From Octopus vulgaris (taxonomy: Eukaryota), in NCBI GenBank assembly GCA_951406725.2, contig OX597824.1:34782001-34846000 (forward strand): a stretch of 64,000 nucleotides of DNA, written 5' to 3'. The notes under the pieces were generated by a model. That model made no database searches. It was not told the DNA's origin and saw only the letters and a program-made list of their open reading frames with translations. The first letter of the stretch is position 1; each line of letters opens with the position of its first letter. The translations under genes and the position numbers were made by a program. Shown piece after piece: positions 13,569 through 62,950 of the stretch.

Positions 13569-13611
<43 letters not shown>

Positions 13612-19980: not shown

Positions 19981-22900
19981 ATCTGCCTTTTATCATAAGA
20001 GATAAATGTATATATGCATATATATACTGTTTGTTGTTTACACACCTGTCTTTGTCTTTTGTTGTTGTTTTTTTGTAAATTCTCACTATATATTACACGC
20101 TCACATGGTTGCACGAGTTTTATCCTGTCTCCACCTCCTTCGAACTTTTCTTGGACTATTCTGCCTGGATTCTCCACCTGGACTTTCTCCTACACTCAGA
20201 CTCCTATACTTTGGCTGCACCTCTTCTACCCATGGATTACACTGGACTCTTACTTTGATGAGAAATCGCTCCAATACACCAAGGCATTTGAACCTTTTGA
20301 ACTTTTCTAAACATTTTTGTACTTTCTGATTTTTCCTATTGTCATTTCTCTCAATCTGCACTTGTTACCTTGCCTCTCTCTCCCTCCCTTTCCTTGTCCC
20401 TTTTGTCTTCTCTTCTCCCTTTCTTCCCCTTTCTCTTTGTTTCTTCCTTCTTCCTCCTTTCTTTGCTTGTTTTTATTTTTTCTCCTCCCACCTCCTATAT
20501 TTTTTTCTCCCCACACCTTTTGAATTTTTCTTCCTCACGTCTTTATTTGCCTTTCTCTCTCCCCCTTTTCCCCCCCTTTTTCTCCTTTCCTCTTCTCGTT
20601 TTTCAAACATGCCCAATTACAAACCTTTCTTCCTCCATCTCCACCACTGCCTAAAGAAACACCTTTCTGCACTTCCTTTCCACTGCTTTCAACCTTCTAT
20701 TAACCTTTCCCTACTAATTTTTAAAAAAAAACATGCTTCTGTAGCCACCTTTCCTTTCTCAGTCACTGCCTCATCCCTAAAGGTTTCCGCCTTCATTTCC
20801 ACCATACTCTCTACTCTGCTTCAACCATCCTACCCTTACTTTGTACTACATCCTACCACCTTATGTGCACCTCCATTCGTTCTAATCTCTCCAAAATACA
20901 CACCATCGACCGCCTTCTCCCTCTGTCTTTAACCATCTTCTTCTCCTCTCAGTCAACCTCCTGTGCTAACACTACTTTGCATAATTCATTTAAATCATCT
21001 CTTTCATCAATTTCTCACTCACACTAAACAATGCAAGCTCCACTCCTCCATTCCATCACACCTGATGCCACTACCCCAACTCCTCCTTTACCCCTCTCCC
21101 TCCCTGTTACAATCCCTCATCCTCACCAAACCTCCCGTCCCTTCCAACCCCTACTCACATACCCTCCTTCCCAACCTCCCACCCCACCCACCCCTCCTAC
21201 TTCTGTCCCATCCACCCCTTCTCCACTTCAGTCTGTTGTTACCATTCTTTCAGATCTTCCCCTCTCTGAGGTGGAGCACTCCCTCCTCAGTAGGGGTCTT
21301 CGCTTCATCCCCCTCACTCCAACCAGCAACGAATTTTGGACTCATGCTGATATCCACAGCTTTGTGCACTTTTCCACGACACACCACCTGCATCTAATGA
21401 GGAGGGCTGCTTCACCAGCCTGGACCGCCAACCATTCGAGTGGACGCCAGCTCCTGGCCAGTTCCAAGCAGTCAATCTTTTTGCGAGCCCCTGCCAGTAT
21501 GCTGTGGACCAGTTTGACTTTTCCAAGCATCCCCAACATCTCCCCCCACTGCCTCTAACCTCATTGTCCACATCCCTTGTACTCCCACAATTTACTTCCT
21601 CCTCCAAATCCACAAACCTAACAACCCTGGCCGCTCCATCATCTCCACCTGCAACTGCCCTGCCAAACTCATCTCCAGATATCTTGACTGTGTCCTTGCC
21701 TTCCTAGAAGCTTCCCTCCATGACACCAGCCATGATCTTCGTTTGTTCAACTCTTTCCCCTTCCCTCCTAGCCCCTCTAAACTTCTCTTCACTCTTGATA
21801 TCAAGACTCTCTACATGGTGGTCCCTCACCACGAGGGGCTGCGTGCACTCCAACATTTCCTTGACCTTCGACTGAACCCCCAACCTGACACATCCACACT
21901 CCTTCCTCTGACCAAACTTGTCCTCTCACCTAACTGCTTCAGGTTCGTGGGTAATTTTTACCAGTAGGTCTTGGGAGTGGCCATGGGAATGAGAATGGGC
22001 CCCAACTATGTGAACCTGTTCGCTGGCTATGTTGAAGCCCAAATATTCTCAAGTTTTACTGGTTCCACTCCTGAACTATACAGTCGTTATATTGACAACT
22101 GTATCAGTACGACCTTACTCTCCTGCGAACATCTAGACTCTTTCTTCTCTTTTGTCAAATCTTTCCAGCCTGCCCTCCGCTTCTCCTGCACAATTTCTGA
22201 CACCTCAGTTACCTTTCTCAACATTTCAGTCAGCATTCATCACTCCACTCTCACCAACCCTATTCACTATAAACACACAGACTCAGACTCATACCTCAAC
22301 TTCTCCTCCTACCCTAAACACACCAAGCTCTCCATCCCCTATTCCCAATTCCTCCATCTACACAAGCTCTGCAGTGACAACCATGACTTTGAGACTTAGT
22401 CTCAACTCATGGCTCGCCACTTCATTCTACGTGGATATACCTTCACTACTATCCACACTGCCTTTGCCAGAGCACGTTCTGTGGACCATGCATCTGTTCT
22501 CTCCACTGCACCCACTCTGCCATCACCTGTCTCCCATTTCCCTTCACCTACCACCCCACCATCCAACCTCTCCAATGCACCATTCTCCAAGCCTTCCGGC
22601 AACTCCAGTCCGACCCCTCCACTTTGCACATCTTCCCTCACCAACTCTCCCCTCCTTCAAATGAGCCCACAACCTACGAGACCTCTTGGTTCGCAGCTTC
22701 TTCCCTAGCCCAACCTCCCAACCCAGGTCGTTCCCCTGCTCCCACCCACACTGCCACACTTGCCCTCACCTCTCCAACACCACCCTCCTCACAGGCACCC
22801 ATCATTGACTCTATCATAGCACTAACTCCTTCACCTGCACTTCTAGCAACTGTATCTCCTGCTCACTCTGACCTTCTCTATACATCGGTCAAAGAAGACA

Positions 22901-27381: not shown

Positions 27382-30300
27382 ATGTCCAATGCTAACACCA
27401 GCTCCTGTCCACGGCGTGGACAGGTCGGAAGAGAGATCAAAAGAAAAATGCTACGAAAACTATCACCACCACAACAACCCTCCTCTTCTCAGGCGCTGAA
27501 TTTCCCCCTCCCCCCACATCTCCTTCCCAGTTTTCAGAGTTGGCACTATCAATGTTGGTACATTGACAGGCAAGTCTAGTGAGATTGTAGAGATGCTAGA
27601 GAGAAGACAGGTTGATGTATGCTGCATACAAGAGGTAAGATGGAGAGGTGCTTCGGCTAGGGTCCTCACGGGCAAGGCACTTAGGTACAAACTCTTCTGG
27701 CAAGGTAACGTGGAAGGTGTAGGGGGTGTAGGCATTCTCCTTGCGGAGAAATGGGTGGATGAGGTCATAGAGGTTGTCAGGGTTTGCGATAGAGTGCTTA
27801 AGCTCAGGTTGGTCCTACAGAGTGGCACAGCTATGATTATCTCCGCCTATGCCCCACAAGCGGGACTACCAAATGATCAGAAGGACAACTTTTATGATAG
27901 CCTTCTGCAGGCTACTTCAAAGACTAGTAGCAAGGACCTCATCTTTGTAGGTGGAGACTTTAATGGGCATGTTGGGCGGGAATCGGGTATCTTCACTGGG
28001 GTACATGGTGGCTATGGTATTGGCACCAGAAATGATGAGGGAACTAGACTGCTGGAATTCTGTGATGCATGTAAACTTTCAATCTGCAACACTAACTTCA
28101 AGAAGCCAGTCTGCCACCTTATAACTTATCAGTCAGGAGACTCCTCTAGCCAAATAGACTTCATCCTCACCAGACAGCGGGATGCAGGGTTGCTCTTGAA
28201 TACAAAGACCCTCCCGGGTGAAGAATGTATCCCTCAGCATAGACTAATCATCAGTGACTTTAAGCTTGAGGCCAGAAGGACTCCAAGAAACAAACCAATC
28301 CAGAAAAGAAGGATTTGGAGGCTAAAGAACCCTTCACATGGTCAGAAATTTAGGGACATACTCATCAAGAAATTTGATGAGAGGGAGGAGGAGCTTCAGA
28401 CGTCAGACATAGAAGGTAGCTGGGAATTCCTACGGGACAGCTTGCTGAGTGCCACAGACCGAGTCTGTGGATGGTGCAAAGTCCCTTCCAGACCTAGAAT
28501 TACGTGGTGGTGGAATAGTGCAGTAGATAAAGCCATCTGTAAAAAGAGACAGGCCTGGAAAGCCTGGAAGGATGGGGGCAGCAGGGAACTGTACCAGATA
28601 GCCAAAAGGGAGGCTGGGCGGCAGGTATACATAGCCAAAGACGTAGCAGAAAAGAAGAAGTTTGCCAATGTCCAGCGACGCGAGGATCAAAGAGCTGAAG
28701 TATTTCGGATTGCCAGACAGTGTGTCAGAGAAAATAGTGATGTTATAGGAGAGAAATGTGTCCGCATGGATGATGGGGCACTTGCTTTTACTGCTAGTGA
28801 ATAGAAAGAGGCTTGGAGAAGCCATTATGAAAGACTGCTGAATGAGGAGAATGAATGGGAGGAGGAGAGCCTGCCAAATGTTGACCCAGTAGAGGGACCA
28901 GCTACCCGAATAGACAGCTCCCTTGTAGATAAGGCAATTAAGGATATGAAACCAGGCAAAGCCCCTGGCCTATCAGGAATCACTGCTGAGATGCTTAAAA
29001 CAGCTGGCTATGTGGGCTATACCATAGTCACCCGCATTGTAAACCAGGTAGTTCACAATGGAGTCATACCCAATGACTGGTGCAGCAGCACCATAGTCAA
29101 CTGCTACAAGGGTAAGGGTGATGCTCTAGATAGAAATAACTACAGAGGTATCAAACCTTGGACCAGGTGATGAAGGTCTCAGAGAAGGTCATAACCCATC
29201 TCATTAGGGAGAGAATTTGTTTAGATGAAATGCAGTTCGGTTTTGTACCAGGTAGAAGCACCACTGATGCTATATTCCTGGTCCGACAACTGCAGGAGAA
29301 GTACCTAGCTAAAGATAAACCCCTCTACATAGCTTTTGTAGACTTGGAGAAAGCCTTTGACAGGGTTCCCCGTTCCCTCATCTGGTGGTCGATGCGGAAA
29401 CTGGAGATTGAAGAATGGCTAATAAGGGCTGTACAGGCTCTATACAGAGAGGCTGTCAGCAAGGTTAGGATTGGCAACGAATATAGTGAAGAATTCCGGG
29501 TAGAAGTAGGTGTGCACCAGGGCTCAGCCCTCAGTCCCCTTTTATTCATCATAGTCCTTCAGGCAATAACAGAGGAATTCAAAACGGGATGCCCCTGGGA
29601 GCTCCTCTATGCCGATGACCTAGCTCTCATAGCAGAATCACTACCGGAACTAGAAGAGAAATTTCGGGTGTGGAAGCAAGGGTTGGAATCAAAGGGCCTT
29701 AGAATAAATGTAGCAAAGACCAAAGTATTAGTAAGCAGCAAGAGGTACTCAGCACACACACCCTCGGGTAGGTGGCCCTGCTCAATCTGTAGGAAAGGTA
29801 CAGGTAGAAACTCCATAAGATGCACCCAATGTAAGTTATGGACACATAAGAGGTGCAGCAACATTAAAGGGAAATTAACAGATAAGATAGCTTTCATGTG
29901 CGGCAGATGCACAGGGACAATAGACACAACAGACACTCAGAAAACAGATTCCATCACACTCCAGGGAGAGAAACTAGAAGTAGTTGATAGTTTCCGCTAC
30001 CTGGGTGACCAAGTTAGTAGCGGAGGTGGATGCACAGAGAGTATCACCACTAGAATACGAATAGCCTGGGCAAAGTTCAGAAAGCTCCTACCCCTACTGG
30101 CAACAAAAGGTCTCTCCCTCAGAGCGAAAGGTAGATTGTATGATGCATGTGTGCGAACTGCCATGCTTCACGGTAATGAAACATGGGCAGTGACTGCAGA
30201 GGACATGCGTAGACTTGAAAGAAATGAAGCTAGCATGATCCGCTGGATGTGTAGTGTCAGTGTGCACGCAAGACAGAGTGTAAGCATCCTAAGAGAAATG

Positions 30301-30654
30301 CTGGATATAAGAAGCATCAGATGTGGTGTGCAAGAGCGACGCTTGCGATGGTATGGTCATGTGCTGCGGATGGATGAAGAGAGATGTGTGAAGAAGTGCC
30401 ACTCCCAAACAGTTGAAGGTATCAGGGGGAGAGGTAGACCCAGGAAGACATGGGATGAGGTAGTCAAGCATGACCTCAGAGCATTGGGCCTCACTGAGGC
30501 AATCGCGAAAGACCGAGATCTCTGGAGATATGCTGTGACTGCAAAGACCCGGGCTGCTTTCTGCAGCAATTCCACATACCCCCTACCCATTCAAAGTACC
30601 CCGGATCCCCAAAGTACCCCGGACCCAGTTGCCCCCGTGCCGCTGGCACGTTAA
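27382..30654 (+). pseudogene. RTE LINE ORF2 (APE + RT + PHD-like finger), nearly intact
   Basis: GTINVGTL, CIQE, GDFNGH and SQIDF (APE); KAPG, FVDLEKAFD, QGSALSP and YADD (RT). Disruptions: probable frameshift in the C-run near 27505, TAG at 28802-04, frameshift near 29155. Confidence 0.93.
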
Positions 30655-44400: not shown

Positions 44401-44715
44401 CTTTCAGGTGAAACGTTTAGTTCAAATGAATTATATGATAGAGAGATGTGTGTGTCAGTAATGATAGTGGATTATTGAAGTCATTGAATTTCATAGCATG
44501 AATTCCTGCAGCAAGTTGATTTTAGCTGTGTTACAACCACTTGTCAGTTATCAGACAAATCGTCTCTCTCTATATATGATGGATTGAAACTAACATCTAT
44601 TGGACCAATTTAACAATACTTTTGTTTATTGAAGTTAAATTGATATTTTTAAAAAGTATTTCCAATTTTGTCTTTGACAAAATAACAAAATTTTGATTTC
44701 TATTTTATTTCATAG

Positions 44716-44871
44716 TGACTGGTACACCATGTACAACCCCATCACCAAAGCACAACAACAAAACATCAACAAAACACAAAGAGAACTCTTCTAAATTAAC
44801 CATATCCCTTGCTATTATTGGTGCTATGATCATTCTTGTGCTTCTTGCTCTCAGTTTTTACTATTTCAAGT
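44716..44871 (+). CDS. IL-17 receptor-like stalk + transmembrane exon
   Basis: catag acceptor, GTGAGT donor, phase 1-1; S/T/P stalk then LTISLAIIGAMIILVLLALSFYYF. Confidence 0.85.
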
Positions 44872-44944
44872 GTGAGTATGCAATCTTTGTTCAGACATAT
44901 GCTCAAGTAGTATCACCAAGATTATCTGTATATCTGATAGCTTA

Positions 44945-47731
44945 GCCCTGATTACATGGTCTTAAGCAGATGAGTTAAATCTCATATATAGGACACCAGT
45001 CTATTTCAGGAAATATTTCTTGTAGATGTGGTTCCTATTTTGTCACAAATTAAATACCTAAGACCATGTTGATGTGGATTCAAGACTTACAAATGTATTT
45101 CCTATTTAGTTCTTTCAGCTTTGTAATATGATGAATTGTGGATATTTATATGAGACATTATTTATATGTATATGTTTTGATGTATGTTTGATGAAGGAAA
45201 TTATTATTACTGTTTGTAAATAGTAATCCATTAAATATCTGATGTTTGTGTTGGATTATTTAGCTTGTGTAACTGACCTCTTGAAATCTAGTAATGTCTA
45301 GTAATGTCAAAGTATTTCCATTTGCAAAACAGTGTACAATCCAAGAATTAACTATTATAGTGTCTAGGAAATTTGTGAATAGACTAAAGTACCAATTCTT
45401 ACATGTAACAGAGATGTGATACTTTTGGATAAGCCAGTCTAAGTGGTCCACACCTCCCATATATTTGTCAAACTTGGCTATGAGAAATGGCTGAGGAACA
45501 AATATTTCTTTTCTATGGCTGGTTGACCATCTTTTAGTATTTCCAACAGGGGTGGCAGACTGATGATTGCTTGCAATTGTGAAAATGCTGTTGTCATGCC
45601 ACTTCAAAACAAAGAATTCTTCCTTTTCTTCAAATTTGTAGTCATAGGATCCATGATTTTCCTTTTTCCTGGATTTGTTATCCTTCATGGGACATCTGGA
45701 TGTTCTGTTTGAATATACTGTACCCATGATTCTGATTCCTAAAGTTATAACTTGAGAAAAAGTTAACATAAATTTCATGATCATTGGGGTTCTCTAAGTG
45801 ATTGGTCATTGATAAAACCACTCTTGAACCTAGACTGTCATCATTCCTGGTATTGGAAGTAGGATTTTTTTTTGCTTTCCTTGATATAAATCCATTCTAA
45901 AATAATAGCCACTAGTGGCACAACAAAGCACCCACTTCTTGAAACCAAATCTTATTGGCTTACTCTTATAAATTGTTTTAGAGAGCTTCTTCCATAGTAT
46001 CTTACTATGTTTTCATCTACTGACAGCCTCTTAGAGAATATTCCAAACTGCTTGAACTTCTGATTCAGAGATTAAAAAATCTCAACTTGGCTCTTGCCAA
46101 GTACTTTATCTTTCATTGATTTCATTCTATCATCTGCTCCATCAGTAGTTGGTGATGCAAATTTGGAAAAATCAGTGTTTTTCCAAGAGAAATCTGAGCT
46201 TTTCTTTTTTTTTTCCTTTTGGTTATGTTACTTCTTCATTATCATACCGATGAAGCTCAACACTTTCTGGCACATCCTACAAGATAATGGTTAGATTTCT
46301 GTTCTCATCATCTAAAATCTCATCATCAAAGTCTTCTTCATCAGTCAGTTCATTTACTGGTGGAGGAAGTTCAACAATATCAATAAAGTTTTCATCACTA
46401 GGAGACTCATTTTCTTCTGCATAATTTACTGTACCATGAACTGAATAGAATGACTTGACTGAATGGTAGAAAGCCATGGGAGAACATCTGAAAATAAAAC
46501 TAAAATTAGAATAATAAAGAAAGAAAATAACAATTTTTTTTTCACAGCTGTCTATACATAGAAAATGTTTTCGGCATAAAAAATTTTATCTCTGCAGATT
46601 GTTTTCTCTTTTATGCAACTTCCATAGAAAATTGAAAAAATGGAGTTCTAGTGACCATGCTCCTTATATTAGGACCAAACATTTAGAGCATGCTATATTT
46701 GAGCAAAATTACTTTCAAAGATTTTCTTAACTTTATTGGACAGTTAGAACAATTGTTTATACTATATACAAATATGGGTTGGATATAAGTAGTACTTATC
46801 AAAAAGTTTTTGATTGAAACTGAGTGTATCCTTTCCCTCAAGATTTTCACACCGTACTGAAAACTGAGACATCAGTGTTGACAATATACATCAGACACTA
46901 GGTGTAATATTTGAAAAACACTCCAGTCTTGATGACTAAAGATATCGCAGAAAAATACAAGTGTTGCAGAAATATGATGTTTAACCTGTCTTCTTTGCTG
47001 ATTATTTTTTTTTCTTTTTGTGGTTAAAATTATTTGTGAGTAACCTGCAGGTTGTTTTCAAACCAATACTCAAGAAATTATAGAAATCTGACTCGCAAGA
47101 TTTTATTCAATGTTATTTTTATTTAATTCAAATTCAATAGTTTTAACTGTATTATAAATATAACAGGTGCTCTCCCTTAGTTTACTTTAAGATTTACGAG
47201 AAGGCAGGTGATAAAAGGCTTTTCCTAATTTCTTCTAAGAATTTACTTGTCTAGAAGAATGATGAGTATTAAATTTCTTAACTAATTCTTCAAACTGCTC
47301 CATGAAGAATTTAGGTAAATTACTTAAGGTCATGATGGAGAATACAGATAATGCAAGGGCGACTTCATGAGTTTGAAAAATAATTCACCACTTCAAGACA
47401 TGCAGATGTGAGGACAAATTCTCTTGTAGCAGCTTAGATGTCACTAAAAATATATTGGAAATCCTGGGTTTTTATAAGCTACTTTGGAGTGTCCAGGAAC
47501 TAAAATTTCAGAACAATTTTTGGTTGAAAACTAGGATGGCTTCGGTTAATATTTTCTTAGTCAATGAAAAAAATCTTTGTCTAAACTTGTATTTTAGTGT
47601 CAGAAGAAAATTTCCACAGAACAAATCTAGTTGATTTCTGTTCAAAATATATCTGCTACAAAGTTTCTTACTACAGATGCGTGATCCTTCTGGGCCTAAA
47701 AAAAAAAAAAGGGACCATGGGCGCTAACGGG
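44945..47731 (-). mobile_element. Decayed piggyBac element (transposase remnants about 45260-46477)
   Basis: YMGGVDHLD, KWHDN and KPIRFGFK motifs. Terminus ...CCATGGGCGCTAACGGG|TTAT at 47731; the other end is uncertain. Confidence 0.8.
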
Positions 47732-48120
47732 TTATGAGAAATGATAGTTTTGTAAAATCACATCGTGAGCTTGTTTTCGTTTTATATAGTGTAACATTTA
47801 AATAGTGTTATTGTCAGGCTGCACTTAAGACTTGTTAACAGTTCACAAGGAAAATGCTGTACCTGTTAAGTATTATTAGCATTTGAATTGTTTATATAAC
47901 ATTTTGATAGTTTAGGAGCTAGGTGGAAAATCCGCCCAAGAAAAGACAATTTTTAGCTTCAAAGAAAAAACACAGTCGCAATTAATATTCATAAAGATCT
48001 CACTGTGCAACACTGAAAAAAAGGATGATAGTTTCAGTTATATTCTGTATTATGAGAGATAATGAAAAAGAAAGAATAAGAGAAAAAGTGATATCCTACA
48101 ATTATATATCTTTACATACA

Positions 48121-49740
48121 TCATCATCATCATCATCATCATTTAGCGTCCGTTTTCCATGCTAGCATGGGTTGGACGGTTCAACTGGGGTCTGGGGAGC
48201 CCGAAGGCTGCACCAGGCCAGTCAGATCTGGCAGTGTTTCTACAGCTGGATGCCCTTCCTAACGCCAACCACTCCGAGAGTGTAGTGGGTGATTTTATGT
48301 GCCACCGACACAGGTGCCAGTCGAGGCTGGCGAACGGCCACGCTCGGATGGTGTTTTTATGTGCCACCGACACAGGTGCCAGTCGAGGCTGGCGAACGGC
48401 CACGCTCGGATGGTGTTTTTATGTGCCACCGACACAGGTGCCAGATGAGGCTGGCGGACGGCCACGATCGGATGGTGTTTGTTACGTCCCCAAAGCACGG
48501 AGGCCAGTCTATGCGGTACTGGCTACGGCCACGTTCGGATGATTTTCTTGTGTGCCACCGGCGCTGGTACCACAAAGATACAAATTCCATTGATGTTCAT
48601 CTATTTTGATTTGATTTTCACTTGCCTCAACAGGTCTTCACAATTGTCACAAGAAGGAAGGTATGCACAGGTGGACTGACAACGTCCCAGGCAGGGGCCA
48701 CGGGTTATGGCCTGACTAGTCTTGCCGGGTCTTCGGATGGTGTTTTTATGTGCCACCGACACAGGTGCCAGATGAGGCTGGCAAACGTCCACGATCGGAT
48801 GGTGTTTGTTGCGTGCCCACAGCACGGAGGCCAGTCGATGCGGCACTGGCCACGGCCACGTTCGGATGGTTTTCCTGTGTGCCACCGGCCCTGGTACCAC
48901 AAAGACACAAATTCCATTGATGTACATCTATTTTGACTTGATTTGATTTGATTTGATTTTCACTTGCCTCAACAGGTCTTCACAAGTGTCACAAGAAGGA
49001 AGGAAGGTATGCACAGGTGGACTGACTACGTCCCAAGTAGGGGCCACGGGTTATGGCCTGACTAGTCTTGCCGGGTCTTCAGTTGGTGTTTTTATGTGCC
49101 ACCGACACAGGTGCCAGATGAGGCTGGCGGACGGCCACGATCGGATGGTGTTTGTTATGTGCCCACATCACAGAGGCCAGTCGATGCAGTACTGGCTACG
49201 GCCACGTTCGGATGGTTTTCTTGTGTGCCACCGGTACTGGTACCACAAAGATACAAATTCCATTGATGTTCATCTATTTTGATTTGGTATGATTTGATTT
49301 GATTTGATTTGATTTGATTTGATTTTGATTTTCACTTGCCTCAACAGGTCTATACAAGTGTCACACACTTGCCTCAACAGGTCTTCACAAGTGTCATAAG
49401 TAGGGAGGTATGCACCGGTGGACTGACTACGTCGCCGGGACTTCGGATGGTGTTTTTATGTGCCACCGACACAGGTGCCAGATGGGGCTGGCGAACGGCC
49501 ACGATCGGATGGTTTTCTTGTGTGCCACCGGTACTGGAACCACAAAGATACAAATTCCATTGATGTTCATCTATTTTGATTTGGTTTGATTTGATTTTCA
49601 CTTGCCTCAACAGGTCTTAACAAGTGTCACACCCTTGCCTCTGCCTCAACAGGTCTTCACAAGTGTCACACCCTTGCCTCTGCCTCAACAGGTCTTCACA
49701 AAGTGTCACACACTTGCCTCTGCCTCAACAGGTCTTCACA
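48121..49740 (-). mobile_element. RTE 3'-UTR-derived insertion with nested tandem arrays
   Basis: (CAT)n tail, RTE 3' UTR, units of about 60 bp within about four higher-order repeats, (TTTGA)n and cttgcctcaacaggtcttcacaagtgtcaca repeats. Confidence 0.85.
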
Positions 49741-51464
49741 ATCCATGTATAATCAGTCAATGAGAACGGGAATTATTTTAGGTGAGTAGGCAAAATATTG
49801 CTAATTTGTGGTTCAAATTTTGTAATTCCTGAAATGGAAACTGATTGCATTTATTAACATTGTTAAAATCGACCTATATATAGATTTCATATATTTCATC
49901 TTTGAAATTTTCTTTTTTTTTTTCACATAAATAGTTTATGCCAAATACAGAAACCCATTGCTAGCAAATGATTTTTAAATATATTGTTCATGTTGGAGGC
50001 ATTAATAAAAGCCAGTCAAGAGTAGTATATCTAATGGGGGTTCTGGGACAGATCACATGATAGGGCCCAGCCCATTTTCCACATAGCCCCAGCTAACCTC
50101 AGGCTGCTTATACTCTGTTCGATTTTTTATTTAGACAAATGCTTGCCTTATGTATAAACAACAGTATGATTGAGTACAATTGATGCGAGTGGTTGGTCGT
50201 CGGGTGGACCAAGCGCTGCGGGAAACAGTGCATCAATAAATTGTGTGGGGTCCACCAGGCTCAGTTACGTAGGAAGCTGGGATTGGAGCCAGATATACAT
50301 CTAGTGGGGGTTCTGGGACAGATCACATGATAGGGCCCGCCCCACACCCCTGGCAGGCCCCAGCCCAATGATACACGTTTGTAATCCCAACCCTATACTA
50401 TACTGAGTACCAATAGGAGCCTTATAGCTTTGCCATAGGGTGGACGACCCCTTGCCAGCCTAAGGGCTTATATTTACAGCAGGGGAGCTCGACAACCAGG
50501 GTTTACCCCAAACCCTAGAAGAGCTATAAATGACTCACCTCTGTGCCATTTCGGCCTGTAAGGCCTCATCAGAACACCTGGCAGGTATTAATGGCTCCTG
50601 GTAGTGTCAGTGTGCCTGAACCCATTCCATTACATGAATAGGCCATCAAGTGGGAGCAATCAGAGTTCCACATATAGGACTGTTGAGATTAACAGCCGAA
50701 AGACTGAGGCATTTACTCATCCTCACCATCTGTCCCTTCCTCTACCACAGACTCTAGCCTTTGAATGTCCTCCTTGACCAGCTGTATTTGAGCTTCCGTG
50801 GTTTCTAAGTCCATTGCTATTTTTTCAGCCTCTCTCTCTGTTTTCTCCTTTACTGTAGATGTCTTGTTCATTCAATCAGTTTTCTGGCCAATTCCGGACG
50901 TGCTTTGCCTTTAGACACATTTGTTTCTTTGACTATTTGCTCCAAAAACGAGAAAACTCTCTTTTTTTTGGTCTGTCTACATCCATTTTTGTCATGCTAT
51001 GATATTCCTGTCACACTGATAGAAACTTGTCACGGTCTAGGAGGTGTGACAACTAATTTACAGCTTATATAAACCGACAGACTTAACAGCCCTTAACACC
51101 ACTTAGCACCACTTAACAGCACTTAGCACCACTTAACAGCCCTTTTTGCTATCCATAGCTATGTATATTCCGATACATTCTAGAAGGCTGATGCAGCTAT
51201 GTGAAATGCTTGTGGTTTTTCAAAGTGGGACAGGAAGTAAATAATAGCACAAGGCAGAATGTAAACATGACGTAGTCATAGCACATGGCTGAACCAGGAA
51301 GTAAACATGACGATGTCATAACAGCAGTATGGTGGCCCAAAGGGAACATAAATAAAAAAGTGGCTGAAAGCTGTGATAGTTACAGAGTAACAGTGTATGG
51401 AAGCAGGCTGTGTGGTGCTCTTTTTGGCCTCATAAAGCAGATTATGGTGCAACCAACTTCTTTA

Positions 51465-52132
51465 TGAAACTGGCCCTGGCCTCGTCCTAGCCTCTCTGAA
51501 TAAGCGAGTTTTTTTATCTCTTCATCCAACACCGGAGGTTTGATTGCAGCATGTGCTTTTTTAGCTCCAGCCTGGATCTCTGCCTTAATCTGGTCATACT
51601 TGTTGAGCTCATCAAGAATGAGGCGAAACTCTTCATCTGAGATTCGACCATCCATGAGTGCACTCGAGACATGGTCTGCGATGGTATTCAGCTTGCTCTC
51701 TGCCAGGAGTCTGACCTCGTTATGCTTTTTGGCTTTGACTGTGAGACGGTGGCCAACAAACTTGCCTATTACTCCAAGGCTGCCACATGCCAGGGCCGCA
51801 ATTTCAAGGCCCAAGACTACTGGGGCCACAATAATGGTAGACAGAAGGCCCACACCACCGATGCCCATCCCCAACACTGTGTCAATGCCATCGACAACAT
51901 TGACCCCATGGCAGTATTTTTTGTACAGTTGACCCCGTTTGTCCCTCTCGTCTTCAAGTCGTTCTTTTTCCAGTTGTGAGACCTCTTGAAGCGAGTGGGA
52001 TTGTGCAGTATCAATGAGATAAGGCAGATGTGGATAAAGTGTTGGCGTATAACTTAGTGTGATGTATGCCTTGCCAGCAGATTCGCTGTTAACTGATGTG
52101 CTATCAGCTGGTGGAGCAGTTGCTTGCTTCAT
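51465..52132 (-). CDS. Maverick-associated membrane protein (coiled coil + Gly/Ala-rich hydrophobic hairpin)
   Basis: YPHL...LYKKY...GIGGVGLLSTIIVAPVVLGLEIAALACG...KAKKHNEVRLLAESKLNTI...ISDEEFRLIL; the C-terminus is probably frameshifted. Confidence 0.6.
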
Positions 52133-52159
52133 GATGTTATGGAGTAACTATGGCAAAGC

Positions 52160-52570
52160 TACAGGTCGAGTTCAATTAAAACGCAGTGAGGACATCAGCG
52201 TTGGTCGTAGCTGACCTGAAGCTTACTCGGTCGCATTGGGCAAGCTCTAGTGGGGTCCCAAATGTATTAGTACCAGAGTATTGGTCTGAGGTTACCCCAT
52301 ATGATGTATGTTATCCCGTTAACCACAATATTGACCGTTGCTATGGTGCCCGGGGAAGTGGTAACTCTGGTTACAGTTAGTCGCATTCGGTGAACCCTGC
52401 CTGCAGCCATCATGTTGTAGCCATGCATTGGCAGATTGGCACCAGCACCGAATGACCATTCATATTGGCCCGTTCCAAGAGTGCCACTTCGTTCAGCCCA
52501 CATGGTTATGAGAGGCTTCCGGCTATCGACATACCTTTTTGTGGCTACATCGTGTTCATCAACTGGAACG
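52160..52570 (-). pseudogene. Fibre/adhesin-like virion protein fragment
   Basis: PVDEHDVATKRYVD (DAATKxYVD-type neck motif) followed by a beta-rich domain. Confidence 0.45.
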
Positions 52571-53463
52571 TCACCAAACTTCAAGTGAGTGCTGGGGACG
52601 GTGTCTCAGGTGGAGCTGACGGTGCCATTGTAGAAGCCTATGGCAACCACTTCTACATTCCCCTCGACTTCAAGCTTCTAGAGAGCCATATGCCCTTCTA
52701 CCAGTCAGCACTTGGTGATAGGCTCGAGTAGGAGTTGACATTTAACGACTACTCCCTCATGGTCCAGGCCACTGGAGACGCTAACCCCAGTTACTCCATT
52801 GAAAACATCTGCCTGGAGTATGACATGGTCACACTCCCTGAACTGGCAAGGATGATCCACAACCAGTACAGTGGCTGCCTGGCCATCCTGTACGACCGTG
52901 TACTGCGGTACCGCAAAATTGCAACCAACAAGAGCAACACTTTGTGGAACGTTAACCTGAACATGCCTGCTCGCTCGATGAAGGGCATTCTGTTGTTGTT
53001 TGAGGATGTTGCTGTGCATCAAGCCTTTCAGCGGGGCACCGAGGCCTTCTACAACCCCAAGATAACCAACGTAGAAGTTACCATTGAGGGGGTCCCCAAC
53101 AAGCTGTACAGCCAAGGCCTGCATGCATACCAGCAGTGGGTCGAAGCAAAGATGTTCTTTGCCGCCGGCTGCAAGTGACATCTCGAGGTGGCCATGGTCG
53201 TGAAAGACCTTGCTCTTAAAGACATGTCTTTGGGGTAGTTCTTGACCTCCAAGTTCACCCTCTGGCATGACCTCCACACCACGGACAATGACCAGCTCCA
53301 TGGCAGTGGCCGGCGCATTGAGAATGCCAGCGAGGGTGTGACCATCCAGATCCTGAAAGCGGTAGAGGCCATGGGTGCATTGAACGTCTACCTGTACATC
53401 ATTATGGGCACACAGCTCAACATCGAAGATGGCCGATTCGTCTCAGTGTGCAACTTATACTGA
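52566..53463 (+). pseudogene. Double jelly-roll-like major capsid protein, N-terminally truncated, three in-frame stops
   Basis: One frame across stops: YGNHFYIPLDF..LESHMPFYQ..LGDRLE*ELTFND..IENICLEYD..WNVNLN.PARSMKGILLLF..FYNPKITNVEVTIEG.PN..LHGSGRRIEN. Confidence 0.7.
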
Positions 53464-53479
53464 TACTTCATATCATCAA

Positions 53480-53597
53480 CTCTTTCCACCGGGCCCCCAC
53501 TCTGCAATTATTTGTGGAATGACCGGGTGTGGGAAAACGGTCTTCACGCTGGACCTCCTGGAGGGCCCCTATCGTAGTTTCTTTCAGCACATTGTGT
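53480..53597 (+). pseudogene. A32/FtsK-like packaging ATPase, N-terminal fragment
   Basis: PHSAIICGMTGCGKTVFTLDLL Walker A directly after the capsid gene; truncated. Confidence 0.7.
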
Positions 53598-53882
53598 GGA
53601 TAATGTTTGAAATTTAGTTAGATTCATTTGTGTCATTTAAATAGCAGAGAACCCCAGTCGCCACAACCTCCAGTGTTTGCAAATAACAGCAGAGCAGAGA
53701 CATTCTCTATCAAAAAACTATACTGAGCTGAAGTTCAAAATTCGGTGATTAATTTTTATCATTCCATAGTGATCTTATAACAGTTGTGTATAGTAAATTA
53801 TTATATTCATCTTCTGTTTCTTCATAAAAAACTATTTGGAACTAGCAAAGGTTAAGTGAATGCAATCAAATGAAATGTAAAT

Positions 53883-56280
53883 ATCATCATCATCATTAAC
53901 ATCATCATCATCATTTAACATCCATTGTCCATGCTGGCATGGGTTGGATAGTTTTACCAGGGCTGGCAGGCTGGAGTCTCCACCAGACTCCAGTTTCTAC
54001 AGCTATATGCCCTTCCTAATGCCTACCACTCTGAGAGTATAATGGGTGCTTTTATGTGCCACTAGCATAGATGCCAGTTGCATGACACTGGTAGCTGTCA
54101 CAACTAGGATTTCATGTAACTTGATGGGTCTTCTTCTCAAGCATGGCATATTGCTGAAGGTCTTGGTCATTTGTCATTGCTCCGTGAGGACTGATTCTTG
54201 AAAGGCACAGCTGCTAGTTATACAACACCAGCACAGGTGTTAGATATGTGACACCAGCATTGCACATTACCTCCATGAGGCCCAACACTCGAAAGGTGCT
54301 TTTTACATGTCACCAACATGGGTACCAGTTATGTGATTCTGGCATTGGCCATAACTGTGATTTCATTTGACTTGATGGTTCCTCTCAAGCATAGCATATT
54401 GTCAAATGTCTCGGTCACTAGTCATTGCCTCTGTGTGGCCCAACATTTGAAGATCATACTTCACCACCTTGTCCCATGTCTTCCTGGGTCTACCTCTTCC
54501 ACAGGTTCCCTCTACAGTTAGAGATCAGCACTTCTTTGCACAGCTCTCCTCATCTATACACATTTGAGGCCCTTTGCTTCTAGGCATTGCCTCAATGCCT
54601 GAAATTTCTTCTCTAGTTCTGGTAGTGATTCAGCTTTAAGAACAAGATCCTCAGCACAGAGGAGCTCCTAGGGGCAGTCCATCTTAAATTCCTCTGTTAT
54701 TGCCTGGAGGACTATGATGAACAAGAGGTGGGTGGAGGACTGATCTTTGGTGAACTCTTACTTCTACCTTGAATTCATCGCTATACTTGTTGTCAACCCT
54801 CACCTTACTGACTGCATCCTTGTACATAGCTTGTACTACTCTCACCAACCACTCATCTATCCCTAGTTTCTGCATTGACCACCAGATAAGGGAACAGGAG
54901 ATCCTGTCAAAGGCTTTCTCCATGTCAACAAAAGTCAAGTACAGAAGTTTATCTTTGGCTAGGTACTTCATCTGCAACTGCCACTCTGGAAATGTAGCAT
55001 CAGAGGTGCCTTTTCCCTGGCACAAAACCAAGCTGCATCTCATCTAAACCAATTCTCTCCCTAATTAGTTGGGCTATGATCCTCTCCGTGACTTACATCA
55101 CTTGTTCCAACGATTTGATGCCTTTGTAATTATTTCTATCTAAGGTGTCACCTTGTAGCAGTTGACTATGGTGCCGCTACACCAGCCATTGGGTATGTCT
55201 TTTTTGTGTACTACCTGGTTAAATATATGGGCAACTAAACCATAGCCCACACCACCAGATATTTTAAGCATCTCAGTGGTGATTCCTGATGGGCCGAAGG
55301 CTTTCCCCATCTTCATATCTTTCATATTTTTGCCTAAAATGCTTCTGTTTATTTGGATTGCTAGTCCCTCTGTTGGATCCATAGGCAGACTCTCCTCCTC
55401 CCATGAGTTCTCTACACTTAGCAGCCTTTCATAGAGGCACTTTCAAGCCTCTTTTTGCTGAGTCACTAAATGCAAGTGAACCATTATCCATGTGAGCACA
55501 CTTCTCTCCCACATCATAATTTTCCCTGGCACACTGTCTTGCAAACCAAAACACTTGAAGCTGATGGTCCTCATGCTGCAGAACATTGGTCAACTTCTTC
55601 CTTTTTGCTCTACCTCTGGCTAAATATACCTGCTTCCTAGCTTCCGTTCTAGCTGCCTGATCTAGCTCCTTGCTACCAACACCCTTCCAATCCTTCCAAG
55701 CCTGTTTCTTTGCTCTGATGGCCCTGTCAGCTACACTGTTCCACCACCACACACCTTAGGCCTGTTTGGCACTTTGCACTAGCCACAAATTTTGTTTGTA
55801 GCTCTCAGTAAGTTGTCTTGTAGGAGCTTCCAGTTATCCTCTATGTTACAAGTCCTCCTTCTTCTCATTAAATGCTTCATTTAGGACATCTTTAAATCTC
55901 TGACTGTTCAAAGGATCCTTAAGCTTCCATATCTTCTTTTTCGAAACTTGGTTGCTTCTTGGGATCCTTTGTGCCAGTAGTTTGAAGTAACTAATGAGTA
56001 ACCTATGCTGTGTGGTACATTCTTCTCCAGGGAAGGTCTTTGCATTTATGAGAAGCCATGAATCCCACTTTCTGGTGAGAATGTAATCAATCTGTGTAGC
56101 ATGGTCACCAGATTTGTAGGTTATCAGGTGACTGGCTGGCTTTCTGAAGTTGGTGTTGCAGATCATTAAGTCATTTGCATCACTGATCTCCAGTAGCCTT
56201 GTTCCCTCCTCATTTCAGGAACCAATTCCATGGCCCCCATGCTCTCCATGAAAGACACCTGGGGCTTGCCCAGCATATGT
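53883..56280 (-). mobile_element. Old RTE LINE copy with internal deletions
   Basis: (CAT)n tail, 3' UTR, FVDMEKAFD, KAFGPSGITTEMLK, WWWNS and TQIDYIL; further RT-end fragments at about 56300-56660 and 60370-60740. Confidence 0.9.
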
Positions 56281-57519
56281 TCAAGAATATCTGATGATTC
56301 TAATGCCCATTTTTTCTTTCAGTACATACGTACTTTGTTGCACATGCACACTAACATTACCCGTCCATCATAGCATGTTAGTTTTATTTCTCTCTAGTCT
56401 TTACATATCTTCTGAATTCTTAGAACAAGTTTCACAACCATAAAGCATTGCTGTTTCATACACAGGCATCATACAATCTGCCTTTCACTCTGGGAGAGAG
56501 GACTTTTGTTACTAAAAGAGTTAAAAGTTCTCTAAACTTTCTCTAACTGCTCCTTATCCTATACTTCCATTGCTTCCACTGATAATTAGGTTACCTAGAT
56601 AACAGAAACTATCTGCTACTTCTAGGGAGCCTCCTGGGCATCCTAGAACATTGTTATCTCTGCCTTTTTTACTGAACCTAGAAGAGGTAACTCATCGATC
56701 TTTAAAGCAGTCTTTAATATTATGGTCATAACATGTCTGCTTGCCATGCTGGCATGAATTGATAATTTCAGCAAGATCCAACAGACTGGAGGATCACATC
56801 TCTCTCCAATTGTTCTTGTGGCTGGATTGCCTTCTTTATGCCATCTACTTGAAAATATGTACTAGTGGCACCAGCATTAGTGATGTTGCCTTGTAATCTG
56901 CAAGACTGAGAGAGAGAGTATCAGAGTATGAGTTGGTTTTATGTGAGATTCAAATATGATGTGAAAAACCAGAAAAGTTTATTGCTGTTGGGGAGATTCA
57001 AGGCTTCCCAATATCATATACGGGTAGGTGGGTTACAGGGAATGGTGCCAAAAGAGAGATTGTGGTGATGAGGTACTTGAGTGTACCTTCAAGGTAACAT
57101 GTTCCAGAAGGTAATATACAAGAAAGCATAGAGACAGAAGGATGAAGAAAGATAGGTAAAGGTTGTTAGAATATATGTGAAGAATGAATGATTGATAGAG
57201 CTTGTGGTTGCTAATATCAAAATAAGAAGTGCTGGTGGTACTAGTTATAACAGCAGTAGGATTATATTAGCAATAATGGGTGACAAAGTAATAATTATAT
57301 ATCAACAGAAGTTGTAATAATCATGACAGTAATGGTAATACTACTATAACTAATTGTGATATTGGTTTATTAGAAACTTATTACAGCTAGGTGGACTACA
57401 ACAGATTCACAGAAATGTTCAGTGAAATAAAACAGCCTACATTCTCCGATGAATGAAAGTTTACAGCCTGTCTTATCATTATTTATATGTGTGTGTGAAT
57501 GTGAGAATATTTTTATTGA

Positions 57520-57835
57520 TATATAAGCTTGCTTCCAAACAATGTGATCTTAGGTTCAGTCCTACTGTGTGACTTGTTGTTCAAATGTCTTCTACTGTAG
57601 CCTTTGGCCAACCAAGGCCTTCTGAGTACATTTGGAAGATTGAAACTATAAGAAATCGACAGTGTGTGTGTATTTTTGTTTGTTCCCCTCCATCTCTTGA
57701 GAACTGGTGTTGGTTTGTCTCCATCCTTATAATATAGCTGTGTGGCAAGAGAGACTGATAGAATAAGTACCAGACTTAAAAAATAACTATTGGGCACTGC
57801 CCCAGCATGGCCACAGTCCAATAACTGAAACACAT
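57520..57835. mobile_element. Rearranged SINE (head on minus strand, tail on plus strand)
   Basis: 57520-57650 matches the SINE head in mixed orientation; 57700-57835 matches the tail. Confidence 0.5.
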
Positions 57836-58258
57836 AAAAAGATCAATTTAAGAAGTTGGTGACTAAGTTAGTAAAGTGAAGTGTCTTTGAACATGGCTTA
57901 GAGTTATTATTATTAGGAATGAGCTATTTCTCTAGAAATTCAATAACCTTTGCTTAAATAACTGATATCAGATTAAGATTACACAGCCACATTTTTTAAG
58001 GTCACATTTAAAAGTTCTTGCATGTCAAGTGACCACATAACTTCTTTACTTCCTCTGTAGATGATTATATCTATTTTGAAATCTCACTTTTCTGAATTCA
58101 AGTTTGATTGTGGCTGGTTTTAGAATTTTATTTTTCTGGGCCATGTAAAATGGTATGATTAATTCTGTTGATCTTGTATGTAGTTAAAGAATTTCAATCC
58201 TTTAATTCTCATATATTGTTGATATTTTATTATTGATTGTGTGAATTTATATTTTCAG

Positions 58259-58977
58259 GAACACTCCAAGAGAAAAGAGGGCTGTTATTTTATACAGAGG
58301 ACCATACTTACCACTGTGAAGCCATTGATAAGTTTATATCTTTCATGAATAAGAGTAAATGTAAACTAGAAGTTGCTGCTCAGCTAGTGAAAGGTGGTGA
58401 TCCATTAAGACTGAGTTTAGAAATTCAAAAGTCTGATTTTATAATTCTTGTTTACTCCAAAGCTCTTCACAAAAGAATTCAGGCATGGAAAAGCAACCAA
58501 GATTACATAAATTTTTTAAAAGAGGATAACTCAGCACTGTTGACAGTTTCCCTTCTTAGAGAACTTAATGCAAGCAACAAACTTATCATTTGTAAGTTTC
58601 CTCAGGTACCAAACTCCAGTATCAGCAGTGAATTACCTTCAATCAAGTGTTACACTCTTACAAAAGAGTTGAACTCGCTTATTAAAAAAATCCATCGATC
58701 AAGAGTGCATCAAGAGCTCGCTATTCGTGTCAAGAGTAACAAGCTCAATCATAAATTTAACTCTTTGACAAACACAATTAAGAATGCTGCCACATTTGAA
58801 GAAAATAATTCCAATTGGTTTCAAGACAAATATATTTGCCCTAAGAAAATGGAATCTTTAAATGAAATGCCTGATTACAGTGCAAACTTTTCAGATGGAT
58901 GTGAACGTAGTATTTTTTCAGTCCCTGTAAGTTATATGTTGGAACAGATCAATGAGTACAATGACTCATCAGTATAA
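58259..58977 (+). CDS. IL-17 receptor-like terminal exon, SEFIR domain
   Basis: ttttcag acceptor. GLLFYTEDHTYHCEAIDKFISFM...EIQKSDFIILVYSKA...IICKF...CYTLTKELNSLIKKIH follows the SEFIR pattern (V.IVYS.D...H...V..LA.FL / ADKVIIVCS / Y.L......L...L). Open to TAA. Confidence 0.85.
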
Positions 58978-61343: not shown

Positions 61344-62950
61344 CACTACCGTCAGAAATTAATTAGCAACCTTGATTTTCTCTTCACTCAAGGTATTTGC
61401 TGTCACCTAGTGGCCATATCTCGAACTATTGCTTTGTTGTGAGTTCACTGTTGCGCAGAACGATGACGTAACTTTGTTTGCAGAGCAGTTTGAGAGTCTA
61501 CAGCCTAATGATGTTGACATAGCAGTGCAACAACAACTTGGAGTGCGGATGGAGACAAATCTTCCTTTGTTTAATAGATATAGGTAGCGCCTCGCAAGGA
61601 CCGAAATCACACTGTACTAAGTTTTCTCATCGCGTAAGACGTTTTGAACAGCTCATAGGTTAATTGATTTGTGTATTTGCAAGATTTTTTTTCCTCACAA
61701 ATTCTCCTACACTCTGCTTGATGACGTCACTTCCGGTTCACGAAACTTTCTGTTATACATCAAATAAGGTGAGAAATTCTGCTTTCTTTCTTTTTTGTTT
61801 AATGAATAATAACTCATAGCAGTTTTGTTATAGCATAACATTATTCAAATGAATAGTTTTAATGAAAATAACTGGTTTTTATCGTTCATTCCTAGATGGG
61901 CCCAAGACCTCGCATGACCTTGGAGAGACGGTACGAGGCTCTCTCGTGGCGTGGGAAGCTGTCGGAGGCTGCAATAGCCAGAAAACTTGGTGTAGCCAGG
62001 CGCACAATTCAGTGCTTATTTAAGAAATACGAGGAAACCGGATCAGCAGCTGACAAAAAGGGTAGGGGACAAAAGAGGCTGACGACCCAGCGGGAGGACC
62101 AGATGCTGATCCGAAAGTCGCTGTACAACCGAAGGGCAACGAGCCAGCAACTGGCGGAGGAGATGCAAAAGATGACAGGGAAGCAGTTGTCTACAACCAC
62201 CGTCAAGACCAGATTACTGGAAGCTGGTCTAAAATCCTGTAGGGCCGCCCATAAGCCGCTCCTTACAGCCCAAAACTGGAAGAGGCGGCTGCTCTGGGCC
62301 CGTGCCCACAAGACATGGACCGTGCAGCAGTGGTGGACAGTGATGTTCACTGACGAGTCGCGATTCAGTCTTGTCAGTGACAAGCCTGTCCATGTGCGAC
62401 GCCGCAGGGGTGAGCGCTTCAACAAAGACTGCATTGCTCTCACCATGAAGCATGGTGGGGGTGGTCTGATGGTGTGAGGGGCGTTCAGCTAGTGGTGTTG
62501 GGCGGCTCTATGCCGTCGAAGGCAACATCAACGCAGCAAAGTACGTTGAGATAGTACGGGATACCTCTTTGGTGGCAAGGAGTACGTGCTCCAGCAGGAC
62601 AACGTGCTTTCCCACACAGCCAAGCTCACAACCGGTTTCTTCAAGGACCATGGGGTGACGGTCATGGACTGGCCTGGCCAGTCACCTGACCCCTATTGAG
62701 AACCTCTGGAGTCGATTGGGTAGGGATTTGAATGTGCAGCAATACAGGAACCGACACAAGCTGTTTGGGGCACTTCTTGCTGCATGGAGGGCCATCCCTG
62801 CACAGTACCTGCAGGCACTCATAGACAGCATGCCGACCCCGCGTAGCAGCTGTCATTGCTGCCAAAGGAGGAGCAACAAGATATTGACTAAATTTCACGA
62901 TTAATAACAATTATGTGGTGTGCTGGGATATGTTTTAATAAATTTTTGAT
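61344..62950 (+). mobile_element. Tc1-like transposon; transposase 61896 to about 62900 disrupted, right TIR not found
   Basis: HTH, GRGQKRLTT, KPLLT, WWTVMFTDESRF, KHGGGGLMV, LQQDN and WPGQSPD..PIENLW; TA-CACTACCG candidate left end. Confidence 0.88.

Follow-up and report, generated by a model that had tools for sequence, protein, structure and literature searches.

Polinton-3_NV and N1/N1A/N1B_NV are listed without a protease and are stated to lie outside the mavpol capsid lineage, beside the PgVV group (Krupovic 2014, PMC4028283; Barth 2024, PMC11296320). Animal elements allied to Aquintoviricetes have been described from Octocorallia, Hydrozoa, and Bivalvia in a text that mentions no cephalopod and no gastropod (Bellas and Sommaruga 2026, 10.64898/2026.06.19.733378), and these are compared here by description only. 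Maverick/Polinton groups 1 and 2, the adintoviruses (Starrett 2021, PMC8502044), resemble the intact relatives of the element reported here in having pPolB, rve, an A32 ATPase, a double jelly-roll (DJR) capsid, terminal inverted repeats (TIRs), and AG-rich ends, but differ from them in a capsid with undetectable similarity and in adenain, which is not found in the relatives. From the PgVV/Gezel-14T group the relatives differ in another way, most of them possessing rve and pPolB as typical PLVs do not.

The element and its host gene

The window is a 64,000-nt stretch of the Octopus vulgaris genome (contig OX597824.1, positions 34,782,001 to 34,846,000), in which 50019-53600 is a decayed, internally deleted Polinton-type viral element of about 3.6 kb (Table 1). 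A preliminary description made from the sequence had proposed such a relic, and the DJR capsid, by the fold of an intact relative, together with the A32 ATPase bears this out. Retained are 2 terminal-repeat copies, 3 accessory genes, half of a fiber-like gene, the last two thirds of the major capsid gene, interrupted by 3 stops, and the opening ~55 codons of the ATPase. As had also been noted, there is no pPolB, rve integrase, right TIR, or TSD within 50019-53600; the part corresponding to pPolB is deleted, as is the region of the penton (minor capsid) gene. Terminus copy 2, the zinc-finger-like gene start, the 90-aa gene, and a three-copy tandem array are absent from the earlier description.

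Our joint reading, at a probability of roughly 0.85, is that an integrating DNA virus of the Polinton type, its capsid likely of the protease-less Polinton-3_NV lineage, likely entered the germ line a single time and survives as this dead remnant, truncated and with an internal deletion, and that the remnant, located in the last intron of an IL-17-receptor-like gene, was then likely duplicated as a passenger in the triplication of the host gene. The gene remnants, their order, their breaks, the intron, and the three copies are observed directly. On its own the relic can neither move nor produce particles, and no helper copy is found; the insertion itself probably has no function.

Table 1. Coordinates of the relic and of the surrounding host gene in the window
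Feature	Position	Strand	Basis or remark
Host exon, transmembrane segment of IL-17-receptor-like gene	44714-44871	+	Spliced contigs; hydrophobic stretch in translation
Host intron holding the relic, 13,387 nt, GT..AG	44872-58258	+	Joint in X15, X17, X18
Terminal inverted repeat copy 1 (AG-AGTAGT start; right-hand end of the element, reversed)	50019-50074	+	Matches to L010, L011; GC step
Cys-rich (zinc-finger-like) terminal gene, first ~42 codons	50166-50291	+	1 stop; cut at start of terminus copy 2
Terminal repeat copy 2, same direction as copy 1 (likely left-hand end)	50291-50344	+	49-nt direct repeat, 92% identical
90-aa coiled-coil accessory gene, broken	50713-50986	-	Two frame breaks; 17 homologues, ~80% identity in pieces
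Non-coding element sequence common to left ends of relatives	51177-51301	.	blastn to L020, L034, L035
Helical-hairpin gene (hydrophobic, predicted membrane-active)	51445-52132	-	Frame break near 51510; 345 homologues, up to 72%
Fiber/spike-like gene, C-terminal half	52179-52584	-	Frame break near 52300; tblastn to L009, L010
Major capsid gene, last two thirds	52561-53463	+	~300 codons, 3 internal stops; homologues; fold of intact relative P0005
A32-like packaging ATPase N-terminus with Walker A	53429-53596	+	Element truncated at this point
Host last exon, SEFIR domain	58259-58977	+	PF08357 27.6 bits (cut-off 23); paralogues

Placement in an immune-receptor intron, already suggested, is upheld by spliced contigs and by the transmembrane and SEFIR exons on either side. 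The splice joint from 44870/44871 to 58259 is present in 3 of 4 runs (2 studies) that we presume to be RNA, none being on record as such, and is readable as GT..AG in one. The 4 runs give zero contigs across 51108-53603; at 50232-50477 and at 50611-50826 there is one low-depth contig each, looking like other intronic scraps. Neither result is evidence on expression. A conserved block at 53633-53884 was considered as an exon and rejected, having no open frame in any copy and being skipped by the spliced contigs.

The capsid and its lineage

Because Pfam and PDB sequence searches with the relic capsid matched nothing, its identification relied on homologues and a fold. The frame aligns to residues ~135-430 of proteins of ~431 aa with 61-73% identity (best 120 of 1007 matches), confirming the capsid-like frame of about 300 codons that had been picked out ahead of the ATPase start, and the N-terminal ~135 residues are truly gone rather than too diverged to recognize. 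The sequence folded was that of the intact relative P0005, a stand-in for the broken relic capsid and 71% identical to it over the last two thirds. The predicted model of P0005 has the jelly-roll fold anticipated for the capsid, in the double form (pLDDT 77), and Foldseek finds its best PDB matches in the PBCV-1 capsid (E = 3.5 × 10−17) and iridovirus capsids.

From the sequence comparisons, the lineage of the relic capsid is likely a little-studied one that was first noticed in a sea anemone, Nematostella, as Polinton-3_NV. The link runs through a proxy, P0397, and a comparison by eye: 36 of the first 50 residues of P0397 and the printed Polinton-3_NV capsid are in common by eye count, and P0397 scores E = 9 × 10−71 against the profile of the capsid family (hhalign 100%) and E = 4 × 10−33 with 26% identity against the relic itself. 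At only ~29% identity to this proxy, the relic clade is sister to Polinton-3_NV rather than a near copy of it. Polinton-3_NV and N1/N1A_NV (PMC4028283, PMC11296320) resemble the elements here in the capsid lineage, in the ATPase, and in the protease, which is not listed there and not detected in the relatives; their sizes are 14-16.5 kb versus 13-14.5 kb for the relatives here. They differ in that capsid divergence, in that the hosts of the relic clade include mollusks, and in the state of the copy here, a broken remnant of 3.6 kb whose terminus is doubled. The relatives may be protease-less, as suggested by blank Pfam and motif scans run with no positive control: no protease family is found among the ORFs scanned in L010 (14), L015 (13), L008 (11), and L011 (8), several of whose genes are unannotated, and an adenain-like protease motif occurs in no ORF of 7 loci.

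The preliminary description called the relic adintovirus-like, and this did not survive. PF21738, which we take to be the marker of mavpol capsids, has no match in 3 + 40 capsid relatives, although the same model does match a second Maverick relic (C2) on another contig of this genome. Similarity between the relic capsid family and the PF21738-type capsid of C2 is undetectable, with an hhalign probability of 0.1% obtained on a broken fragment of 180 aa, and in BFVD there is no close adintovirus capsid, the best such row standing at rank 15 with 10% identity. An ordinary Maverick/adintovirus remnant of group 1 or 2 would explain the pPolB, rve, TIRs, and AGTAGT ends of the relatives, the hairpin and fiber-like genes that the relic has in common with C2 at 30-42% identity, and the SF1 helicase of L008, as group 2 is described as exchanging pPolB for such helicases; PF21738 also appears in 10% of members of one Atlas neighbor cluster. 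Set against the capsid results and the clear link to Polinton-3_NV, which is stated to be outside the mavpol lineage, this already weakened reading is highly unlikely. The donor cannot be named because 36 of 70 inner branches are open in the capsid tree, a quick version of 76 rows comprising the relic and 75 intact, unnamed close relatives chosen by length and rank. Motif searches found no match in the supplements of PMC10120064 and PMC11131425 or in the available portion of that of PMC8502044.

Intact relatives and the inferred parent

The order of the remnants is colinear with intact marine metagenome contigs of 13-14.5 kb, which encode hairpin (−), fiber (−), three more genes, major capsid (+), ATPase (+), small genes, rve, a replicase (−), and a Cys-rich gene (−). 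Relative L010 combines TIRs and an AGTAGT start with both rve and pPolB. pPolB is found in L011 and L015 as well, with an SF1 helicase instead in L008; rve is found also in L008 and L011, and no such ORF is listed in L015. A 224-aa gene of L015, a candidate penton by its motif, has only viral look-alikes without names in the Atlas. A named host is available for a minority of relatives only, among them gastropods (Elysia) and bins of lucinid clam symbionts, and the names on record for 10 distant representatives are uninformative. Of the pattern matches in two IMG/VR scans, none of 5 and none of 15 proved to be a relative; in GTDB 1 of 26 did, a short contig that is assigned to a bacterial MAG and likely mis-binned.

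By analogy with these relatives and with established Polinton biology, the parent would have been a linear genome of 13-14.5 kb with short TIRs. A protein-primed polymerase (or a helicase module) would have replicated it starting at the ends, the A32 ATPase would have filled a fiber-bearing DJR capsid with it, and the rve integrase would have inserted it into host DNA. After insertion, the block from mid-fiber to mid-capsid and all beyond the ATPase start would have been lost; the remnant would then have decayed neutrally and been copied passively by the triplication of the host gene.

The other genes and the termini

The packaging ATPase adjoins the capsid gene, as had been described from its GxxGxGKT start; the Walker A motif is GMTGCGKT at 53516-53539, and homology to intact Pox_A32 ATPases stops at ~53596. 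This N-terminus is 59-71% identical to the ATPases of relatives, whose proteins exceed the Pox_A32 cut-off. The two genes recognized earlier on the other strand are likewise substantiated. The fiber-like fragment carries DVATKRYVD, an instance of the DxATKxYVD pattern, and is 45-48% identical to genes of relatives that match the phage tail-fiber profiles PF03906 and PHROG tail-fiber families. The hydrophobic-hairpin gene, leftmost in intact relatives, is open across ~200 codons; the predicted model for a relative is all-helical with long helices, and its best VIA matches are BAR-like bundles at Z = 12, an ordinary score for helical proteins. No gasdermin (compare GasderminX, an accessory gene of the adintovirus Beta-class module) is among the 50 fold matches listed for the hairpin protein, which does not exclude gasdermin. 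In tblastn, the Cys-rich start matches the last gene of L008, L010, L011, L015, and L031 at 34-44%. The best cluster for the 90-aa gene contains a protein of Elysia crispata, and the gene is not found in the loci of relatives L008-L039.

AGTAGT at the left edge (50021) had been taken as the terminus. The hexamer alone is weak, with 26 occurrences in the window, but the terminus stands: 13 nt at the edge are identical to the start of TIR-bounded L010, the window contains a 14-nt word of the L011 end at two sites only, 50037 and 50307, and GC rises from 0.26 to 0.46 at copy 1. TIRs themselves are present in L010 and L015, while the two terminus copies of the relic point the same way, and each of the three genomic copies shows the same doubling. 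Derivation of the doubled terminus from a circle junction was rejected, as it would place the Cys-rich gene on the opposite strand. The TSD is unreadable by empty-site alignment, the right end of the relic being lost and its left flank unalignable to the paralogous intron, which has a different repeat at the corresponding site and gives no clean empty site.

Copies, decay, and origin

In searches of the octopus genome (five queries in all), whether the query is capsid, ATPase, or terminus, the only matches are the same three tandem copies, ~93 kb apart, 98.6-99.1% alike, and each within a duplicated host block; the corresponding intron of an 86% host paralogue is without the relic. The copy number of three likely reflects tandem duplication of the host gene. 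It had been suggested that intact relatives may exist elsewhere in the genome, and complete copies with TIRs and TSDs were to be sought; the searches produced only these three broken copies. Further degraded copies may be missed because only best candidates are scored and the pPolB family search, which found none in this genome with these queries, was also silent in every control genome. The integrase query gave 3 weak, stop-bearing matches, one belonging to C2, a relic unrelated in capsid.

Decay is evident in the capsid, where 13 of 111 conserved columns are changed (median for 84 intact rows, 1.8%) and 3 stops interrupt the frame, in an end branch of 0.33 versus a median of 0.11, and in a CpG o/e of 0.51 versus 0.87-1.14 in 7 of 9 relatives, L008 and L025 being CpG-poor also. 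Estimates are discordant between genes, with ~5% per site for the capsid and 3/68 to 6/87 columns changed for the hairpin gene, within the range of intact rows. That lesser decay of a frame open for ~200 codons, and the retention of the relic in four labeled organisms and three receptor copies, might suggest co-option of the remnant by the host, for example of the hairpin protein or of intron sequence in immunity along with the receptor. We consider this most improbable: the hairpin frame is broken in 3 of 3 copies, 200 stop-free codons are by our estimate not unusual at 1.5-5% neutral decay, and linkage to the duplicated host block accounts for the retention. Differences between copies are nearly all replacements (silent:replacement 0:4 and 1:20, the second probably indel-inflated), and replacements exceed silent changes in 4 of 4 comparisons; the test has little power because the host SEFIR exon also shows an excess, at 3:2.

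The relic likely arrived by one germ-line infection and never spread. Alternatively it could be the last insertion of an old, vertically inherited molluscan transposon family, otherwise extinct in this lineage, with no need for recent horizontal arrival. Close relatives do exist in gastropods (Elysia) and in lucinid clam symbiont bins, Mavericks have been reported by repeat annotation in all mollusk genomes analyzed, cephalopods included, and extinct families can leave few traces, so that the copy search is a lower bound. The lineages concerned split some 500 million years ago, and because of that date the identities of ~73% in the decayed capsid and ~80% in the 90-aa gene are high for inheritance, lying near the nearest-neighbor identity of intact rows (median 87%, minimum 79%). 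An active resident family should also have left other copies of similar age, and none are found. We therefore regard vertical inheritance as unlikely.

Implications

The debate over viral spread of animal Polintons still turns on indirect evidence. A lone insertion that was never amplified, with a capsid sharing ~73% identity with elements from other marine hosts, is more in keeping with infection than with inheritance, and the age of the insertion is bracketed by the host duplications. Cnidarians and bivalves are the hosts named so far for the one animal lineage that falls outside the Maverick/adintovirus capsid cluster; the relic extends this lineage to a likely cephalopod, and intact relatives of 13-14.5 kb with a fixed gene order are now available for defining it. 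We suggest tentatively, at somewhat under even odds, that protease-less DNA viruses with PgVV-type capsids form a large clade whose infectious particles circulate in several classes of marine invertebrates, with exchange of polymerase and helicase modules and, in some cases, no integrase, and that the relic may be a datable record of one cephalopod germ-line infection by a virus that was never a resident transposon. The value of the relic lies in the host range that it records for a poorly described lineage and in the indirect sign that it gives of horizontal arrival.

Anatomy of the relic

The relic, a decayed and internally deleted Polinton-type element, is a real viral fossil, and all of the features named in the preliminary description are present in the window; its remnants, their order, the breaks, the intron around it and its copy number are direct observations. 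In 5 relatives the Cys-rich gene lies at the right end and reads inward, so the two terminus copies, this right-end gene and the left-end sequence together mean that the relic keeps both element ends, lying in tandem with the same orientation. The doubled terminus could have come about if a sister copy had inserted itself into the terminal gene, or through a template switch in replication. A deletion of ~4-5 kb separates the fibre-like and capsid pieces, whose homologies overlap briefly at 52561-52584, and host AT-rich DNA resumes near 53600.

Features of the relic, from left to right, and of its surroundings (window positions)
Feature	Position	Remark
Terminus, copy 1	50019/50021	leftmost part of relic
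Cys-rich gene, first ~42 codons	right of terminus copy 1	broken off at 50291
Terminus, copy 2	from 50291	begins at Cys-rich gene breakpoint
Broken 90-aa gene	right of terminus copy 2	17 homologues; best cluster includes an Elysia crispata protein
Non-coding stretch	between 90-aa gene and hairpin gene	common to left ends of relatives
Hairpin gene, then C-terminal half of fibre-like gene	left of deletion	
Capsid and ATPase pieces	right of deletion	
Intronic block	53633-53884	directly right of relic; 85% conserved in the 86% paralogue; no open frame
Broken piggyBac-like transposase (PF13843)	45260-47000, minus strand	in the relic's own intron
Nested tandem arrays (62, 346, 39 nt units)	48100-49750	common repeat; missing from relic copies 2 and 3
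Long ORFs	2406-6322, 11647-12432, 21518-22399, 27500-30654, 61896-62477	

By eye, the five long-ORF regions are reminiscent of a Gypsy gag-pol that is nearly intact, of mariner/Tc1 transposases, of a Penelope-like RT and of an RTE-like LINE.

Capsid, relatives and lineage

Frame +1 of 52456-53463 is readable with 3 internal stops. With X at the stops, this capsid frame finds 1007 proteins at E ≤ 0.001, and the best 120 of these are 61-73% identical to the relic, ~431 aa long in most cases, with one, from Elysia marginata, named 'major capsid protein'. Homology begins at 52561, corresponding to about residue 135 of the intact proteins. The double jelly-roll expected of this capsid is borne out by the predicted structure of P0005, an intact relative 71% identical to the relic: the AlphaFold model, from 84 aligned sequences (pLDDT 77, pTM 0.77), matches double jelly-roll capsids among known structures, PBCV-1 scoring highest (E = 3.5 × 10−17, TM 0.55), and does so again in BFVD at 8-16% identity. 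As in relatives, the end of the capsid frame and the beginning of the ATPase overlap; the ATPase piece ends at ~53596.

A metagenome scan gave 31 loci out of 212 pattern matches, and ORFs were mapped on 12 of the longer ones. Their common order is hairpin(-), fibre-like(-), ~230 aa(-), ~430 aa(+), ~450 aa(-), capsid(+) and ATPase(+), followed by 4-5 small genes(+), integrase(+), replicase(-) and the Cys-rich gene of ~95 aa(-). Locus L010 (14.5 kb) has AGTAGT after 6 nt at its start and a TIR; L015 (13.2 kb) likewise bears a TIR, extending into the hairpin gene end, and its ORF map has no integrase. Pfam matches rve in L008, L010 and L011, and pPolB in L010, L011 and L015. L008, whose capsid is 79% identical to P0005, carries an SF1 helicase and endonuclease VII domain (9967-13596) in the slot of the others' pPolB. 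No protease family was matched by Pfam among the scanned ORFs of L010 (n = 14), L015 (n = 13), L008 (n = 11) and L011 (n = 8), and a protease motif was absent from 7 loci, both scans being run without a positive control. Several capsid relatives (P0012, P0022, P0057, P0133, P0162-P0175, L039) are deposited under 'Candidatus Thiodiazotropha' and other bacterial MAGs; these are likely viral contigs that come from the host and were wrongly binned with its symbionts' genomes.

The capsid family matches only the NCLDV Capsid_N model, mostly under its cut-off, and does not match PF21738, though that model does ring on a second element in this genome. A whole-library profile search with the family gave 2778 matches at E ≤ 0.001, including P0397 (E = 9 × 10−71), which is 29% identical to P0005, alignable over the full length, and shares 36 of the first 50 residues, counted by eye, with the Polinton-3_NV capsid (Krupovic 2014, Figure S3). 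In that paper (PMC4028283), Polinton-3_NV and N1/N1A/N1B_NV are entered without a protease, and the PgVV capsid groups with Nematostella Polintons. Later studies place the 3_NV and N1A_NV capsids likewise outside the Maverick/adintovirus cluster (Barth 2024, PMC11296320), give cnidarian capsids as the sole metazoan ones outside it (Bellas 2023, PMC10120064), and add Aquintovirus-allied ATPases from octocoral, hydrozoan and bivalve (Bellas and Sommaruga 2026, 10.64898/2026.06.19.733378). The Polinton-like part of the original label thus stands, the relatives having pPolB, rve and TIRs, whereas its adintovirus-like part is not supported, as the capsid gives no adintovirus-type (PF21738) match and is linked through P0397 to Polinton-3_NV. 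The relic is best filed in a sister clade of Polinton-3_NV.

The second element, on contig C2 (139,508,800-139,517,100; L075, L076, L070), is another Polinton relic, also broken, with a capsid of the PF21738 type; it retains integrase (rve) and hairpin and fibre-like remnants. The two hairpin genes are 33-42% alike. The C2 capsid fragment has no similarity to the window relic's capsid (hhalign 0.1%, hmmsearch E = 0.16), and therefore two lineages reached this genome.

Host gene, copies and history

A splice joint from 44870/44871 to 58259 occurs in 3 of 4 presumed RNA runs (two studies), reading GT..AG in run X17 with a short side of 78 nt. Because the joint spans the relic, with a transmembrane exon upstream and a SEFIR exon downstream, the relic is intronic in an IL-17-receptor-like gene, which confirms the proposed immune-receptor intron. 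The SEFIR receptor array (C11:34.59-34.95 Mb and C30:9.14 Mb) comprises three genes at 98% identity, a fourth at 86%, a pair at 78% and some more distant members, and is a recent expansion in ~93-kb units.

Intact relatives had been thought possible elsewhere in the genome; capsid, ATPase, terminus and middle-stretch queries, as lower-bound searches, each return only the same three C11 sites, 93 and 94 kb apart. The host block around each copy is itself duplicated and brings along a SEFIR exon that is 98% identical, and the relic copies diverge by 0.9-1.4%. Contigs of four runs, labelled as four organisms, cover all 30 bins of the relic stretch, long pieces being ~99% identical, with some length variants within the viral genes; the coded labels may stand for close or synonymous species. 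Since the relic is in three blocks and four runs, insertion is older than the triplication and the split of the labelled organisms. It is probably younger than the 86% paralogue, in which the right flank aligns at 85% and the relic is absent. A rough estimate of neutral decay based on the capsid (13/111 conserved columns changed) is ~5% per site, whereas the hairpin gene gives only ~1.5%.

From the relatives and established biology, the parent would have primed replication from its ends, packed DNA into a jelly-roll capsid by its ATPase, and integrated by rve. The pattern suggests a single germ-line integration without amplification, then deletions and neutral decay, the relic being triplicated passively. 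The relic's high identity to elements from other marine hosts, together with the failure of the searches to turn up a resident family, favours horizontal arrival. Against it stand the genome searches being lower bounds, most relatives having no named host, a capsid tree that points to no donor, and Mavericks in general being reported from cephalopods by repeat annotation.

The available portions of the literature on Polintons and Mavericks, searched for octopus and cephalopods and for Polinton-3_NV (including PMC11131425, 10.1101/2025.04.19.649669, PMC8502044, 10.64898/2026.10.13.758929, 10.64898/2026.06.19.733378, PMC11071308, 10.1101/2023.08.22.554363, PMC10294476, PMC11071296, PMC4642659, PMC11296320, PMC10120064 and PMC4028283) do not describe any cephalopod element belonging to the Polinton-3_NV-type lineage; bioRxiv supplements may already list the cluster or cephalopod matches. 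The relic adds to a known but thinly described kind of element.
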